Source: a virus. Taken from it: 64,000 nucleotides of DNA. The stretch covers positions 1 through 64,000 of IMG/VR virus record IMGVR_UViG_3300045988_131144; one strand, given 5' to 3'. A program made the position numbers and the translations under genes. Below the pieces are notes generated by a model. The model was not told where the DNA came from, ran no database searches, and saw nothing but the letters and a program-made list of their open reading frames with translations. How positions within the stretch are numbered: the first letter of the stretch is position 1; every line of letters begins with the position of its first letter. Shown here in pieces: positions 1,222-58,181 of the stretch.

Positions 1222-1418
1222 AAATCACAAAAGAAATCGTATACGCCCTTGAGCACGAAAGAATAGCGGACATACTCTGTCTGATGTCCTTCGATTTCAA
1301 CCAAAAGGAAAAAGAAGCTGCATTCGACATGATTTGCGGCACACATACCATGGCCATGTCAGTTCTAAAAGCAATCGAGACGGAGGAAAAACAGAATGAT
1401 ACAAATCAAACTATTTGA
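1218..1418 (+). CDS. hypothetical protein
   Basis: Start overlaps the GT2 stop (ATGA coupling). No recognisable motif. Confidence 0.45.
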   Translation: MKITKEIVYALEHERIADILCLMSFDFNQKEKEAAFDMICGTHTMAMSVLKAIETEEKQNDTNQTI

Positions 1419-2026
1419 AAGCGAGGAGTTTGGCAACATCCGAACCGCAACAATCGATGGTGTCCCGTGGTTTGTCGGGGCGGATGTGGCTATAGCCTTA
1501 GGTTACATCAATCCTCGCGACGCGCTTGCGAAACACGTTGATGCAGAGGATAGGGGTGTCGCAAAATGCGACACCCTTGGGGGGCATACAAACCTTATCC
1601 ATCATCAACGAGAGCGGCATATACAGTCTGATTATGTCCAGTAAATTGCCCTCCGCAAAGCGCTTTAAGCGGTGGGTTACGAGCGAAGTCCTCCCCGCAC
1701 TCCGAAAGGGAACTGGACTTGAGGCCATTGAAGCCCTCAAGATGCTTTCGCGTGAGAATCAGAAGCGGGGCAATGCAGCCCTTTACGCCGCAATCCCGGA
1801 TATTGATCGAGCCACATACTGCAAGGCCGCTTCCATAACCGGAAAAGAGATTGCCAACCGAATGGGGCTGGATAAGCGGATCCCAAAGGCCGACGTGCCA
1901 CCTGAGTTTCTGTCTGAATATGATTCTGTGTTCTCCGATGTAACTCACCTCATGGTTCTCAACGAACGATATGGACTTGGGCTATCGGTAAGCCATGCGA
2001 TCCATCAAAAGAGCAATGCAGTCTAA
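1396..2026 (+). pseudogene. BRO-N domain antirepressor split by a +1 frameshift in a G6 run (1579-1584)
   Basis: ORF 1396..1644 gives FESEEFGNIRT..DGVPWFVGADVAIALGY...CDTLGG. ORF 1526..2026 continues GIQTLSIINESGIYSLIMSSKLPSAKRFKRWVTSEVLPALRK. Removing one G joins them into one canonical BRO-N domain. Confidence 0.8.
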
Positions 2027-2388: not shown

Positions 2389-3675
2389 CTATGAATCTAT
2401 AACCGCCTCGCGCCAATGGTTTCCCAAACTGGAAATTATTTTGTCCACGTTTTTGTCCACATCCGGACTTTTTTTGTTTTTGCGAAATGCGTCAATAAGT
2501 TCAGAATCTGAGAGAAGATCTTCCTCGTCGACGTCGGTATAAATGTTGGCTGTAAGCGCCATATCTGAATGTCCCATGTAACGTTGGGCATCCCTAAGTT
2601 TGACCCCGGCTTTCTTCAAATCGGTGCAGTAGGTATGTCTTAGATCGTAAAGCACAAGGTCATCGGCTATGCGATGTCCATTTCTCGGCTGCGTTGGGTT
2701 GTCCGGATCCGGGTACATTGGTGTGCCGTCAGGCAACAGATCGGACGGATCATATATATGTCCCTTTGCAGTATACTCCGCTCCGAGAGCAATGTCCATA
2801 TCACGTTTAAGATTTTCCCACCACCTGCGTATACAGGTTTCTGTGACCATCGTTTTTCCGTCTCGCTGGGTAAACAGAAAATCTGTGGAAGATTTCTCTG
2901 CAACGGCCTTTTTCAGCTCATCGGCCAAATCGAGCGGGATGGGTATTTGCCGAAGTCCTGCATGAGATTTTGGGCCTCCACCGAGGGCTTTTGTTCCCGA
3001 CTCAACACTGTCGCGAACAGTAAGAAACCTTTTCGTTAAATCGAGGTCAGCAACTGTCAGAGCGGAACATTCGTTAGGGCGCACACCGGTTCCGATAAGA
3101 AACTTTGCCCACAGTCCATGTTTATTGCGTTCCACTACGATGTTGAATGCGTCTCTCTCAGCAGCTGTCAGCGCTCTCCTACGCCCTTTTTCAGCGGCGG
3201 GCAATTCCAGTTTCAAAGACGGGTCAAAGATAATCACGCGCGAGGCTACGGCCTGTGAGAACATTGCTTTAATGACTATGCGCAGTTTTGAAACATGAGA
3301 AAAGGATTTTGTGGCTTCCCGGTTCAGTATATTTCGCAGGTGCGTGTCTGTTACTGCCTCAAGCTTTTTTCTGCCTATTGCGGGTATGATAATGTTATTT
3401 ATCATCCGCTCATACATACTGTACGATTTCTCGGTCATAGTATTGCGGCGTTTGGCCGTGCCCGGTTTACGCACTTTCGGTTTAACGTATGTGTCAAGCC
3501 AAGTCTGTGCCCAGTCCGCAACTGTGGGATTAACGAGTGCCTTTTCCTTGTTCTCCAGTTCTGCAAGTTTCAGGGCTATTTTTTCCTTGCAGTCCGCCTC
3601 ATCTCTACCCTTGACGTAGTAGCGCTGCCCCATATATGTAAAACTTGCCGACTTCCGTGCAGGAGATTTTGTCAT
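2389..3675 (-). CDS. int: tyrosine integrase (site-specific recombinase)
   Basis: C-terminal catalytic signature LYDLRHTYCTDL ... MGHSDMALTANIYTDV (H-x-x-R and catalytic Y). Lies adjacent to the tRNA fragment. Confidence 0.9.
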   Translation of the reverse strand: MTKSPARKSASFTYMGQRYYVKGRDEADCKEKIALKLAELENKEKALVNPTVADWAQTWLDTYVKPKVRKPGTAKRRNTMTEKSYSMYERMINNIIIPAIGRKKLEAVTDTHLRNILNREATKSFSHVSKLRIVIKAMFSQAVASRVIIFDPSLKLELPAAEKGRRRALTAAERDAFNIVVERNKHGLWAKFLIGTGVRPNECSALTVADLDLTKRFLTVRDSVESGTKALGGGPKSHAGLRQIPIPLDLADELKKAVAEKSSTDFLFTQRDGKTMVTETCIRRWWENLKRDMDIALGAEYTAKGHIYDPSDLLPDGTPMYPDPDNPTQPRNGHRIADDLVLYDLRHTYCTDLKKAGVKLRDAQRYMGHSDMALTANIYTDVDEEDLLSDSELIDAFRKNKKSPDVDKNVDKIISSLGNHWREAVIDS

Positions 3676-3697
3676 TTCCTCTCTCCCCTTTTAATCA

Positions 3698-4366
3698 TTA
3701 ACCTTTACGCCATGCTCTTAGCTGGTGCAAGGCTATCCATGCAATTGCACCAAGCCCGATGATGAAAACAAGAAAGAGCACAGCCGCATATATACTGAGC
3801 TGACCAAAGAGGATAAGCCCCTTGTCGCCCAGATGGAAGTCCATAACGAGGTAGTACCCCAGCGAGACTTCGAGTATTCCGGCCAGAAAAAGCAAAATAT
3901 AGATAATCGGTTTTCTGGACGCAAGTTCATTGGTCAGACGCCCCTTCTCTCTCACCAGACCGTCGTTAATAGCGTTCAGGCGGTTTACCTCGCCTTGAAG
4001 CCGAACATTTTCCAGCTCCAGCTTGTGAACTCGGTCGCGCTGATTGGATAGTTGCTCGGTGCCGTTGACAAGTCTCTCGTTCTCCGCGGTCAGTTCGCGG
4101 ATTCGCTGCAGGAGCACCTCTCGCTCGTAAGCTGGCTGCAAACCAAACACTTCGTCCGCGGACAGCCCAAGCGTGTCGATCAACGCTATCGCGTCCGATA
4201 CCTTCGGGTTATCCTGCGTGTCTGCGCTTATTTTGCAGACAGTCGAATAGGATACGCCTGACTGATCAGACAACGCCTGATTTGTCAATCCCTGTTCCGC
4301 GCGAGCATTTTTGATCTTTGCGGTGAAATCATCAAAAAACTGCTGCAATCGCTGGTACGATGTCAC
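3698..4366 (-). CDS. XRE-type HTH protein with coiled-coil and two C-terminal TM helices
   Basis: GLTNQALSDQSGVSYSTVCKI HTH, a long heptad-like segment, and C-terminal IIYILLFLAGILEVSLGYYLV / IYAAVLFLVFIIGLGAIAWIAL. GTG start at 4366 behind GGAGGGGAG; ORF track extends to 4540. Confidence 0.6.
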   Translation of the reverse strand: MTSYQRLQQFFDDFTAKIKNARAEQGLTNQALSDQSGVSYSTVCKISADTQDNPKVSDAIALIDTLGLSADEVFGLQPAYEREVLLQRIRELTAENERLVNGTEQLSNQRDRVHKLELENVRLQGEVNRLNAINDGLVREKGRLTNELASRKPIIYILLFLAGILEVSLGYYLVMDFHLGDKGLILFGQLSIYAAVLFLVFIIGLGAIAWIALHQLRAWRKG

Positions 4367-4577
4367 AATTCTCCCCTCCAGACAAATTTTCTCCAAAATA
4401 AGGAACTCCTGCTTCGACTCTTTTCGACTGACTTCTCCGAATCGAACAGGTATTCTCTTTTTAGGAGATGGACTTTGAAGATTACTTCTGCTACCATCGA
4501 AAGCGTAGCAGATACCGGTGCAATGTTCTATCTGCTGCAAGCTCCGGCGGAGGCGGCAACCAATGCCGGAGCGTTTT

Positions 4578-5054
4578 TCAAAATAACGTCAGTTCTTTAA
4601 GAAGTGATTTTTCTATATCGAGTATATCCGCATACGGCTTCAACCTTCCGTTGCGCACAAGTGCCAGATACCGAGATAATTTGCTCTGAATGGCCTTAAT
4701 GTCTTTCTCATCTTCCACCACAAACGGCGAACCATTCACCGTAAAAGGCCGCAATAAGTATTTTTCTATAGCAGGGATCGCGTCTCCGATAAGGAATGCA
4801 CTATCTTTTCCCTTTACCCTCGCAATGTAATGGAAGATGCATTTCCCTTTCCCGTACTTTTTCTCGTCGGCTGCGATAGACAACCTATATTTTTCAACTT
4901 TAGAACTTAATGGCACGAGCCATATTATTCCGTTTGCTCCCTCTATTGCCAAGTAATATGGACGGTTTTCGTACTTGTTGCTCATCATTTCGGACTGCCC
5001 GTATCTTTCAAAATAGTCATCCGATAGTATGTAAAGTCCGTGTGTTTTTATCAT
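4578..5054 (-). CDS. ToxN/AbiQ-like protein (type III toxin-family endoribonuclease candidate)
   Basis: LYILSDDYFERY, NRPYYLAI and WLVPLSSKVEKY resemble the ToxN/AbiQ N-terminal pattern (FY.I..Y...L, RPY, Y.APLSSPK), recalled from memory. 158 aa. GGGAGA SD. ORF track extension to 5150 runs through a terminator. Confidence 0.55.
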   Translation of the reverse strand: MIKTHGLYILSDDYFERYGQSEMMSNKYENRPYYLAIEGANGIIWLVPLSSKVEKYRLSIAADEKKYGKGKCIFHYIARVKGKDSAFLIGDAIPAIEKYLLRPFTVNGSPFVVEDEKDIKAIQSKLSRYLALVRNGRLKPYADILDIEKSLLKELTLF

Positions 5055-5073
5055 GCTATTTCTCCCACAACGC

Positions 5074-5106
5074 AAAACCGCCCTCCGCAATGAAGCAGAG
5101 GGCAGC
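5074..5106 (-). terminator. intrinsic terminator/attenuator inside the leader of the ToxN-like gene
   Basis: On the minus strand, CUGCCCUCUGC UUCAUU GCGGAGGGCGG followed by UUUUG, about 20 nt before the SD. Confidence 0.65.
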
Positions 5107-5261
5107 TTTTCAAGCCGACAATTTATAAGTCCCCGATCGGCAGGGGGCAATTATAAGCAGGTCGCATATTTGTTAGTCGCCTGACGACAGGCGGCAGTCA
5201 GATGGCGCAGACGCGGAACAAAGTTCTTTGTCATGGCAAGCAGTCACCCGCTTGCAAGATT

Positions 5262-5289
5262 ATTATACCACATCCTATGCGAAAGTAAA
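5262..5289 (-). promoter_or_regulatory. sigma-A type promoter for the ToxN-like operon
   Basis: Minus strand TTTACT, 16 nt, TATAAT. Predicts a ~200-nt untranslated leader. Confidence 0.55.
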
Positions 5290-5414
5290 CAGAAAAGTCC
5301 CTCTGTATTTAATTTTGTGGATTCTGCTGAATGGAATATTCGCGCTCTGGATATTCGTCCCACAGGCGTTACTAAAGAAACCGCTTAAAGTTTTTGAATT
5401 ATTAGGTTTTGCTG

Positions 5415-5443
5415 TTGCCAAAATTCGGTCAAAAAACTATAAT
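5415..5443 (+). promoter_or_regulatory. near-consensus promoter pointing into the 3' end of the repressor gene
   Basis: TTGCCA, 17 nt, TATAAT. Confidence 0.6.
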
Positions 5444-5482
5444 ATATACAAGTAAACATATTAAAATTAAATGGAGGTCGAA

Positions 5483-5629
5483 ATGGGAACAGCTACAATA
5501 TGCACAGAAGATATAAATACGACAATTACCATCAAAGAAATAATCGAGAAAATGCAGACGTTTAGTCAGGAAGATTTTTCTCTGATTGTTTCGGCTGTCG
5601 TCCAATTATGCAATCAACCACATTGCTGA
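5483..5629 (+). CDS. 48-aa hypothetical protein, convergent with and overlapping the repressor 3' end
   Basis: GGAGG SD 5 nt before the ATG. MGTATICTEDINTTITIKEIIEKMQTFSQEDFSLIVSAVVQLCNQPHC. Below the ORF-track size cutoff. Confidence 0.4.
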   Translation: MGTATICTEDINTTITIKEIIEKMQTFSQEDFSLIVSAVVQLCNQPHC

Positions 5630-5912
5630 TTGACGCAAGCTGCTCAGGGGTCAATGTTTCAAGTGAGGCCATCAAACTCATCAAAGCCTCATTACGACTG
5701 GCGGATGCAGGCTCTTCCCAGCCAACCAGCACACCCGGAGTCACCCCGAATATCTCCGACATTTTCTCTATACGCGAAAGAGGTATATTGTTGATAACGC
5801 CTTTTTCATATTTATACACATTCTGAGGTGCAATATCTAAAAGCTTTGCGAGTTGCTCCTGAGTCATTCCTTTTTGCTCGCGGTACATGGAGATTCGTTC
5901 ACCGATTGTCAT
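5562..5912 (-). CDS. CI-like XRE-family repressor
   Basis: MTIGERISMYREQKGMTQEQLAKLLDIAPQNVYKYEKG HTH. Divergent from a cro-like gene. GAGGTG SD. ORF track start trimmed. Confidence 0.8.
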   Translation of the reverse strand: MTIGERISMYREQKGMTQEQLAKLLDIAPQNVYKYEKGVINNIPLSRIEKMSEIFGVTPGVLVGWEEPASASRNEALMSLMASLETLTPEQLASISNVVDCIIGRQPKQSEKNLPD

Positions 5913-5988
5913 TATTATCACCTCGCTTTGAATAATATCACATAACTTTACAGTTTGCAAGAATAAAAAATTTTCTGCAAAAAATAAC

Positions 5989-6017
5989 TTGACAAGTTCT
6001 GAAAATGGGTGTATATT
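5989..6017 (+). promoter_or_regulatory. early rightward promoter
   Basis: TTGACA, 17 nt, TATATT, directly upstream of the cro-like gene. Confidence 0.65.
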
Positions 6018-6019
6018 CT

Positions 6020-6040
6020 AACTAACTTAAAAAGTTAGGA
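6020..6040. promoter_or_regulatory. operator-like inverted repeat AACTAACTT-N3-AAGTTAGGA
   Basis: Sits just downstream of the -10 element, over the start of the transcript. A second copy lies at 6245-6265. Confidence 0.55.
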
Positions 6041-6048
6041 GGTGCCCC

Positions 6049-6246
6049 ATGCTTAACACCAATGCCCTTAAAGGCGAAATAAAGCGCAACGGTCTGACTA
6101 TAGCTCAGGTCGCAGCAGAAATAGGTATTTCAGAATCAACAATGTCCCGTAAACTCAAGTACGGGAGCTTTGGCATTGAAGAAGCTGAAAAACTTATTTC
6201 TCTGCTCCACATAGCAGATCCGTGCGCTATTTTTTTTGCTGATTAA
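6049..6246 (+). CDS. Cro-like HTH regulator
   Basis: GLTIAQVAAEIGISESTMSRKL HTH. 65 aa. Position opposite the repressor. Confidence 0.7.
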   Translation: MLNTNALKGEIKRNGLTIAQVAAEIGISESTMSRKLKYGSFGIEEAEKLISLLHIADPCAIFFAD

Positions 6247-57055: not shown

Positions 57056-57299
57056 GCCCCGTTCGGTGATCCTGCCGGACACGTCCGGCGGCGGGTGCAA
57101 TCTGTTTTCTTCGGGGAGGTGCACCAGCTCCCCACGGCCTTACATCAGCACCCCGGCAGGCTGACCGCCGTTTATAGCGATGGGCGCGCGTCCTCGTATC
57201 TCTCGCCGGGTTTAATCCTGTTTTCTTGCCCATGAGCGCCCGCCATATAGGCGGCTGGACTTGCACCAGCGGCGGCGGATGCCGTCGGCCTTGCGGGCT

Positions 57300-58181
57300 T
57301 CACGCGGCGATTATGGCCGCGCGTATTTGCTCGATGATCTCATATATTTTAGTACTGCCGGTGCCGCTGTTGCGCTTGTAATAGCGCACAGAGTACCGCG
57401 GCGCACCCTCGATAATGGTAATGCTGCATTGTGCAAAGCTATTGAGGATCCAGCCGCGAGTGCGCAAGGGAATTTTCACGCCGTGCGCGTCGGCTATCTC
57501 TACCAATAAAGCGCCGTCTTTTATCAAACCGCCGCGGGTAAAAATCTCCTCGGCCTTCTTTATCTCTTGCCGGTGCTGCTCTTCCTGCTCTGCTCTTTCC
57601 TTTGCTTCCTGCTCTTCACGTTCACGGCGGGCGGCTTCTTCTCTCGCTTCTCCATCGGCGCGCAGTTTTGCGGACAGCTCCGCGCACTTGCCAAGCTCCC
57701 CGAGTACAGCCGCGCCGACGAAGTCGGCGAACGTGCCGCCGTTGTCGCGGGCGTCGGTGTAATTACGAACGCGAACGCGCAGACGATCCCGGATATAATC
57801 CGCTTGCCGTGCAGGGTCTGAGCCGTACCGAAGTATTACGGGTTCTTCCTGCGCTCGCAGCGCGTCCGTGTTTTCGGTTCTCCGCCAAACTCGCGCCCGT
57901 TCCTCCTGCGTGCCGTATAGTTCCACGCAAGCCGGGAAAAAGCCCAGAACATCGGTAAATTTATAATCTGTCATCCGCAGCGGCACTAAATAGTTGTTGA
58001 TCTCGACATAAAGAAAATACCTGTCGCGCTCATTGGCGGGGTATTGGTTTTTCTCTGTACATGTCCAAAGCTTGTACGACTCCGCGCCGTTGCTGACCTC
58101 GCGCACAAAATCCGCGCGGCAGTTTTTGCCCTCGCGGTTATACATGCCGTTAATAAAAAGGGGCTTTTTTAATGTGCTCAT
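57300..58181 (-). CDS. hypothetical protein with central Arg/Glu-rich coiled coil
   Basis: 293-aa ORF. EAREEAARREREEQEAKERAEQEEQHRQE. Confidence 0.55.
   Translation of the reverse strand: MSTLKKPLFINGMYNREGKNCRADFVREVSNGAESYKLWTCTEKNQYPANERDRYFLYVEINNYLVPLRMTDYKFTDVLGFFPACVELYGTQEERARVWRRTENTDALRAQEEPVILRYGSDPARQADYIRDRLRVRVRNYTDARDNGGTFADFVGAAVLGELGKCAELSAKLRADGEAREEAARREREEQEAKERAEQEEQHRQEIKKAEEIFTRGGLIKDGALLVEIADAHGVKIPLRTRGWILNSFAQCSITIIEGAPRYSVRYYKRNSGTGSTKIYEIIEQIRAAIIAA

Follow-up and report, generated by a model that had tools for sequence, protein, structure and literature searches.

A 64,000-nt stretch of viral DNA, positions 1 to 64,000 of IMG/VR record IMGVR_UViG_3300045988_131144 (here called the window; all coordinates refer to it unless a locus is named), carries at 5289-4578 on the minus strand what is very probably a self-contained cptIN type III toxin-antitoxin cassette, a member of a known family present as optional cargo of a prophage. 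With the same high confidence the cassette is placed in the slot between the repressor gene and the genes for a helix-turn-helix/transmembrane (HTH-TM) protein and the integrase, in a prophage of a Clostridia (Oscillospiraceae-like) host; cassette and neighbours are all read from the minus strand. The toxin belongs to the CptN family, two antitoxin units with covarying pseudoknots precede it, a promoter and a strong hairpin frame these units, and the whole is present or absent as a cassette among sister prophages.

The toxin and its two antitoxin units

The 158-aa protein encoded at 4578-5054 matched NCBIfam NF047359 (CptIN family toxin, equivalog) with 114.7 bits against a cut-off of 90, residues 6-151 aligning to positions 2-150 of the 150 in the model. 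It matched Eubacterium rectale CptN (PDB 4RMO) with E=1.1e-21 and 35% identity over 136 aa; among the three validated CptN toxins, mutual identity is 35-44% (PMC4627078). It also matched phrog_33519 (E=7e-44), a family now listed as 'unknown function' that can be annotated as CptN. The PLSS motif (S50, S51) and R31 align with S51, S52, and R30 of 4RMO, i.e., with the CptN Ser-Ser-Arg triad, of which R30 is presumably the arginine, as the paper states no residue numbers. S50, S51, and R31 are unchanged across 31 aligned homologues, and Ser85 is conserved too. As a sequence comparison, the match to the solved CptN is decisive for toxin identity. The preliminary description of this DNA had called the gene a ToxN-like type III toxin, which agrees with these matches; of the three profiles it named, CptN scored above its cut-off, while the Pfam search gave no ToxN_toxin match and nothing better than E=0.2, and NCBIfam TenpIN (NF047358) stayed below its cut-off (14.8 bits vs. 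90). The PADLOC AbiQ profile gave only a marginal match (E=0.036, 12.3 bits) to the N-terminal 50 residues.

The leader upstream of cptN contains two tandem 47-nt units, 5196-5150 and 5149-5103, in which 27 of 47 bases (57%) are identical. The best 47-nt self-match of the leader falls at a period of exactly 47 (30/47), a value reached in 0/1000 dinucleotide shuffles (maximum 28). Across the 64-kb window the motif TGCCSCCTG-N5-7-GGSGAC has exactly two occurrences, spaced by 47 nt, against an expectation of 0. The same two units align in 26 further loci whose toxins are 38-67% identical, and an array of two 47-nt copies lies within the ranges of published cptIN arrays, i.e., units of 40-48 nt in 1.9-3.4 copies (PMC3401426). 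The array had been overlooked in the preliminary description, which stated that no antitoxin repeats were present. Tandem Repeats Finder (TRF) detected no tandem repeat in 4400-5600 at a minimum score of 30, because the two units have diverged to 57% identity. The array in the window also escaped a strict (+1/-2) shift scan, which gave only a 7-nt match there and showed a recurrent period of 46-50 nt in the upstream regions of relatives, at about -160 to -40 from the start codon. An inverted and direct repeat search returned only hairpins and a chance 17-nt pair, and an Rfam search (E<=10) of 3400-6200 returned chance matches only. The units were recognized by reading related leaders side by side. 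We concluded that near-identity of the repeats characterizes the cptI loci reported so far and is how they were detected, and that the mechanism does not require it. The elements of the cassette are listed below.

5262-5289, minus strand: cptIN promoter, -35 TTTACT, 16-nt spacer, extended -10 TG-n-TATAAT (consensus scan, 10/12 matches plus TG)
5217-5255, minus strand: 5' leader with two short hairpins (5255-5236 and 5232-5217) before the antitoxin units (minimum free energy fold)
5150-5196, minus strand: CptI unit 1, 47 nt, TGCCGCCTGTCGTCAGGCGACTAACAAATATGCGACCTGCTTATAAT, with A-rich loop 2; stem 1, 5195-5190 with 5181-5176; stem 2, 5188-5183 with 5166-5161
5103-5149, minus strand: CptI unit 2, 47 nt, TGCCCCCTGCCGATCGGGGACTTATAAATTGTCGGCTTGAAAAGCTG; stem 1, 5148-5143 with 5134-5129; stem 2, 5141-5136 with 5119-5114
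5074-5109, minus strand: terminator or attenuator hairpin in the antitoxin-toxin gap, 15-bp stem and 6-nt loop, with a U4 run inside the stem
5061-5066, minus strand: Shine-Dalgarno (SD) sequence GGGAGA, 6 nt ahead of the cptN ATG (sequence read directly)
4578-5054, minus strand: cptN, 158-aa CptN-family endoribonuclease toxin (NCBIfam, PDB, and phrog matches)

This is the canonical order of promoter, non-coding RNA, terminator, and toxin, and here the preliminary description had read the sequence correctly. The promoter it placed at 5262-5289 is TTTACT-16-TATAAT with an extended -10 TG, and the leader of ~200 nt does end in a strong hairpin before the SD (5109-5074; -27.1 kcal/mol, z -6.35, 0/200 shuffles), an element recovered by the inverted-repeat search as well. 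The hairpin ends 8 nt upstream of the SD (5066-5061) and 20 nt upstream of the cptN ATG. The small hairpins CGCCTG..CAGGCG and CCCC..GGGG reported earlier are real and form stem 1 of unit 1 and unit 2, respectively; the 10-nt direct repeat reported with them (5157-5148 and 5129-5119) is also real but out of unit register, as it relates the 3' tail of unit 1 to loop 2 of unit 2. The promoter is kept in the 99%-identical loci L081-L085, is 89% identical in the allele-swapped prophage L124, and is missing from the empty-slot prophages L121 and L123. A strict terminator scan did not list the 5109-5074 hairpin, in which the T run is 4 bases only.

Most of 27 related leaders fold a 5'-terminal hairpin followed by a second hairpin, and this two-hairpin leader may stabilize the transcript. 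It is typical of the subfamily of the window, E. rectale-like loci being without it, and in relatives the second hairpin is often CCAGAT.AGAA..GAC...GTCATCTTCGTCTG. For cptN itself there is an alternative start, that of the cluster representative P0001 (165 aa, 99% identical), which begins 7 codons earlier, at a TTG that lies in the terminator hairpin (5054-5075). The ATG at 5054 is the better start because an SD is present and homologue N-termini agree with it. Directly past the cptN stop lies a hairpin, GCTCCGGC-16 nt-GCCGGAGC, at 4540-4571 on the minus strand, with a terminator-like site on the opposite strand (4554-4568, plus). This segment was assigned to the prophage backbone because it also occurs in cptIN-less L121, there after the repressor gene. 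A near-consensus promoter-like site (5415-5443, plus strand; TTGCCA-17-TATAAT, 11/12) is oriented antisense to the repressor gene and reads into its 3' end.

Each unit can adopt the fold of an H-type pseudoknot. Numbered within the unit, positions 2-7 pair with 16-21 in stem 1, loop 1 is a single U, positions 9-14 pair with 31-36 in stem 2, and between them lies an A-rich loop 2, ACUAACAAAUAU in unit 1 and ACUUAUAAAUU in unit 2. Three pairs have both bases changed between the two units of the window: one in stem 1, which is G-C in unit 1 and C-G in unit 2, and two in stem 2, where U-A becomes C-G and U.G becomes A-U; the two-unit array has thus diverged partly by compensatory changes in both pseudoknot stems. 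Covariation was assessed on 54 units, both from each of 27 loci whose toxins share 38-100% identity with the query. MAFFT alone placed gaps inside stem 2, and the unit alignments were therefore re-gapped by anchoring on invariant positions with N padding. Standard pairs fill 86.9% of cells, compared with 32-51% when the partners are slid by 1-3 columns. Changes are double-sided in 100 cells, and the covariation score of 0.456 (0.173 when shuffled) was reached in 0/500 shuffles. At pair 6-20, 39 units have G-C and 15 have C-G; at pair 11-38, 34 have C-G and 20 have U-A; and pair 12-37 takes four pair types; all three are broken in 0/54 units. The fold and covariance check proposed for this leader thus yielded pseudoknots of repeated units, not a non-repetitive RNA.

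For comparison with the published structure, the units of locus L015, whose toxin is 79% identical to 4RMO CptN, were used as a proxy for E. rectale cptI. Its 45-nt units are compatible with the published numbering, with G13 forming loop 1, A27-G35 forming loop 2, U30 in place, and G44-A45 ending the unit, and their motif order is that of the window units. The two 45-nt repeats of L015 (~4855-4945) themselves differ by compensatory changes in both stems, ACCAC/GGTGG vs. ACCGC/TGCGG and CCGAT/GTCGG vs. CCAAT/GTTGG.

Divergent units across the CptN family

We collected CptN relatives from 115 loci, 80 in genomes (mostly metagenome-assembled genomes of Oscillospiraceae, Lachnospiraceae, and Bacilli) and 35 on IMG/VR viral contigs. 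Unit 1 and unit 2 within one locus are 46-77% identical over the full unit, and 50/54 units are closer to a unit of another locus than to their own partner; the nearest unit occupies the same position in 50/54. The divergence of the units is therefore old and general, with the same positional types maintained across loci. TRF detected an array in 20/114 CptN loci at default and in 35 at lenient settings, and in 0/27 of the loci whose toxins share at least 45% identity with the query. A lenient, shuffle-controlled period test found a period of 45-51 nt in 72/98 distinct upstream regions, and in 83 at no more than 2/200 shuffles; this test replaced a covariance model for unit counting because the pseudoknot cannot be modelled in that way and MAFFT gaps break stem 2. 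We concluded that cptIN loci with non-identical units form a large class that mostly goes undetected, and that the window is one case of it. A 2025 survey described reported toxI and cptI repeats as nearly identical and non-identical repeats as a feature of tenpIN (PMC12283969). Repeat-based pipelines undercount type III systems, and toxins flagged as orphans merit rechecking.

The two positional types raise the question of subfunctionalization. Because the CptIN complex contains two proteins and two RNAs, the two units could serve an obligate asymmetric complex of one unit-1 RNA and one unit-2 RNA, both needed, and the two-unit genetic array would then mirror the stoichiometry of the particle. 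This idea, which we consider speculative and rather doubtful, draws its support from the match of 50/54 units to the same position elsewhere and from unit-specific features that are fixed: in the 13 loci nearest the window, CGCC/GGCG forms stem 1 of unit 1 and CCCC/GGGG that of unit 2, and within stem 2 the first pair that varies is U-A in 20/27 unit-1 copies and C-G in 27/27 unit-2 copies. It would be simpler if two copies without gene conversion had drifted independently, each still binding CptN.

The cassette in the prophage and its possible role

The genes that flank the cassette define its slot, and the early suggestion of a cargo site between the integrase and repressor genes was sound.

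5562-5960, minus strand: XRE/cI-type repressor (Pfam HTH_3, 55.3 bits)
3698-4366, minus strand: HTH(XRE)/coiled-coil/2-TM protein, 222 aa, a neighbour outside the module (GTG start, good SD GGAGGGGAG)
2389-3675, minus strand: tyrosine integrase, int (Pfam Phage_integrase, Phage_int_M, Phage_int_SAM_3)

On the minus strand, cptN lies between the repressor gene and the HTH-TM gene, which is followed by int. The 222-aa protein has the architecture described for it earlier, with a Pfam HTH_3 domain at residues 18-72 (30.3 bits, gathering cut-off 23), weak coiled-coil matches at 81-152, and two C-terminal hydrophobic segments. A search with the protein recovered ten IMG/VR loci (L116-L125) with a backbone identity of 94-99.8% in nine and 88-96% in L124. 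Five of the ten carry the window type of cptIN, L122 and L124 a divergent allele, L121 and L123 none, and L117 has a deleted cptN. In L122 the backbone homology stops at window position 5191 and restarts at 4583, i.e., exactly cptI and cptN have been exchanged. The exchanged allele (L122, 3030-3783; L124/L097, 4881-5465) is a 39%-identical cptIN with its own 46-nt repeats, which are 93% identical. In L121 and L123 the repressor gene is followed directly by the HTH-TM gene, with neither cptIN nor the cassette promoter, and the HTH-TM gene with its 211-nt upstream region is retained at 98% identity. L117 (3380-3790) keeps the promoter, both CptI units, and the hairpin, and has lost cptN codons 2 to ~117, with the last 41 codons left; it is an orphan antitoxin array in which stem 2 of unit 2 is altered. 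In MT835520, a gut phage in GenBank, cptIN is absent and the repressor, HTH-TM, and integrase genes follow one another in that order. Because the HTH-TM gene is present in sister prophages, with a backbone identity of 96-99%, without cptIN, with the other allele, and with cptN deleted, we concluded that it is a backbone lysogeny gene and not a cptIN component, and that cptIN is an exchangeable, self-contained cassette. With low confidence, the HTH-TM protein might be a membrane-tethered XRE-type regulator or an immunity protein of the lysogeny operon.

By homology with CptIN of E. rectale, CptIN(Er), and with ToxIN, the cassette would work as follows. A constitutive sigma-70-type promoter would transcribe the leader with its two tandem 47-nt CptI units, each folding into stem 1, the one-base loop 1, stem 2, and the A-rich loop 2 of an H-type pseudoknot. 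The strong hairpin after unit 2 would halt most transcripts and so keep the antitoxin RNA in excess over cptN mRNA. CptN, as a Ser-Ser-Arg endoribonuclease, would cut the precursor into units and remain bound to them, inactive; the solved E. rectale CptIN complex is an assembly of two proteins and two RNAs (PMC4627078). Should the supply of CptI end, by phage-induced shut-off of transcription or by loss of the prophage, free CptN would cleave cellular and phage RNA. Processing, complex formation, toxicity, and the outcome, whether abortive infection or addiction, are those expected from the family.

Several points weigh against reading the cassette as a working cptIN system with a role in defence. 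Toxicity, processing, and phage defence are ascribed to it by analogy with its family, and the two cptIN loci tested so far gave no phage resistance in E. coli (PMC3401426; PMC4627078). The 5109-5074 hairpin has a short U run and may attenuate instead of terminating. The units are 57% identical, compared with the near-identical repeats of reported cptI, so that binding and inhibition of this CptN by both units can only be presumed. The anchoring of the unit alignment was chosen by the analyst; it used invariant columns only, not pairing, and could slightly favour the structure. In the alignment to 4RMO the window toxin has Lys for Asp81 and Phe for Tyr104, both of which contact the scissile adenine in CptN(Er), and its cleavage specificity may be altered; these contacts were described for one member and are not family-defining. 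Unit 1 has a C at the position of the cleaved A in the E. rectale-like unit. The 3' tail of unit 2, UUGAAAAG (UUGA^AAAG), resembles the UUGA^AAG processing site of that unit, and of the possible cleavage sites at the unit 1/unit 2 junction only GA^U is conserved (UAA^U in the window). With Asp81 and Tyr104 replaced and C for the cleaved A in unit 1, any placement of the cleavage sites would be conjectural.

The same molecular system might have been selected for prophage addiction (post-segregational killing) and not for abortive infection against other phages, a reading that we regard as possible though on the unlikely side. CptIN of E. rectale stabilizes plasmids (PMC4627078), and the lack of phage resistance in E. 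coli reported there and in PMC3401426 is in keeping with it, as is the asymmetry of L117, where the toxin is lost and the antitoxin kept as expected of an addiction module. Against addiction, near-identical prophages without the cassette or with a swapped allele are typical of defence cargo under diversifying selection, and the repressor-integrase slot is lysogen-expressed. Presence, absence, and allele swap in such a slot speak for a role in phage conflict; L117, which has lost the toxin and kept the antitoxin, fits either role, and addiction and abortive infection are not mutually exclusive. Near-identical prophages in which the cassette is present, absent, swapped, or toxin-deleted form a natural isogenic series for distinguishing defence from addiction.

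It is quite improbable that the locus is a decaying relic with degenerated repeats and no working toxin-antitoxin pair. The low identity of the two units (57%) and the loss of most of cptN in the sister prophage L117 could be read that way, but where the units differ, compensatory changes keep both stems intact, and the positional matching of 50/54 units implies a divergence that is old and maintained. Moreover, cptN retains an intact open reading frame (ORF) and the catalytic triad, and five independent contigs match this ORF at 99% identity.

A slightly smaller chance still is given to a new two-gene system in which the HTH/coiled-coil/2-TM protein would work with the toxin as a membrane sensor or regulator, a partnership raised in the preliminary description and contradicted by the sister prophages. 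Three different cptIN types lie immediately upstream of an HTH-2TM gene, and a consensus scan found no separate promoter-like site for the HTH-TM gene between 4578 and 4366. In a profile search, however, the HTH-2TM gene stood beside cptN in these three settings only, namely the phage of the window (L081-L085), L097 (88%-identical HTH-TM, 39%-identical toxin), and L087 (27%-identical HTH-TM); within 3 kb of ~100 other CptN loci none is present, the recurrent adjacency arises because both sit in the repressor-integrase segment, and the HTH-TM gene persists without cptIN in L121, L123, and MT835520. In L123 (3827-4670) it is split into 91-aa and 212-aa ORFs by a frameshift or a sequencing error, which suggests that the gene is dispensable.

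The least probable reading, a type III-like toxin whose antitoxin would be one single non-repetitive structured leader, as proposed at the outset, could appeal to the negative TRF run and to the strict shift scan, and is refuted by two 47-nt units that are significant in the window alone, conserved in 26 relatives, and covarying in their pseudoknots.

Two observations concern the rest of the window. A Bro-N/antirepressor-like gene at 1396-2026 (plus strand) is split into overlapping ORFs, 1396-1644 and 1526-2026, while its orthologue in L097 (8170-8796) is a single intact 208-aa ORF; the split is a frameshift, either in a pseudogene or through an assembly error. A full-length twister-sister ribozyme (RF02681) at 57223-57301 on the minus strand (76.5 bits against a gathering cut-off of 34, E=8e-16) is the only Rfam family above threshold in the window.

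Comparison with known systems

The preferred reading, a cptIN cassette carried as prophage cargo, removes a false lead, since what looked like a ToxN-like toxin without repeats is an ordinary cptIN locus. Of the 33 published cptIN loci, none was scored phage-borne (PMC3401426), and a 2025 paper notes that a single toxIN had until then been the only type III system in phages (PMC12283969). A tblastn search of CptN against 50,697 GenBank phage records gave no match, and in the literature searched we found no report of cptIN in phages or of a phage-defence role for cptIN.

The closest known system is CptIN of E. rectale (4RMO; Rao et al. 2015, PMC4627078), together with the cptIN family of Blower et al. 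2012 (PMC3401426), which has a homologous toxin. The window shares with E. rectale the order of promoter, two tandem RNA units, terminator, and toxin, and the H-type pseudoknot units with a one-base loop 1 and an A-rich loop 2. Unlike E. rectale CptIN, the window has units that are 57% identical, each a distinct positional type across loci; its unit is 47 instead of 45 nt long, with a longer loop 2 and a shorter linker between stem 2 and stem 1; its toxin has Lys for Asp81 and Phe for Tyr104; and an extra two-hairpin leader of ~60 nt precedes the units. Whereas the 33 published cptIN loci were all scored chromosomal (PMC3401426), the window locus lies in a prophage lysogeny module.

The tenpIN systems (Sci Rep 2025, PMC12283969) resemble the window in their two non-identical repeats, which repeat finders miss, in their covarying stems, and in the location of some of them in prophages; they differ in toxin family, as the TenpIN score given above shows. 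ToxIN of Pectobacterium atrosepticum and AbiQ/antiQ of Lactococcus each combine a repeat RNA with an endoribonuclease that processes this RNA and is inhibited by it, and have a terminator that controls the RNA:toxin ratio, features that the window would share by family membership. The window toxin differs from theirs in having no Pfam ToxN_toxin match and only the marginal AbiQ one, and ToxI differs from the window array with 5.5 repeats of 36 nt and a 3:3 complex. Set beside these systems, the novelties of the window locus are modest: its prophage location, its non-identical, positionally conserved units, the two-hairpin leader, and the natural series of cassette variants.

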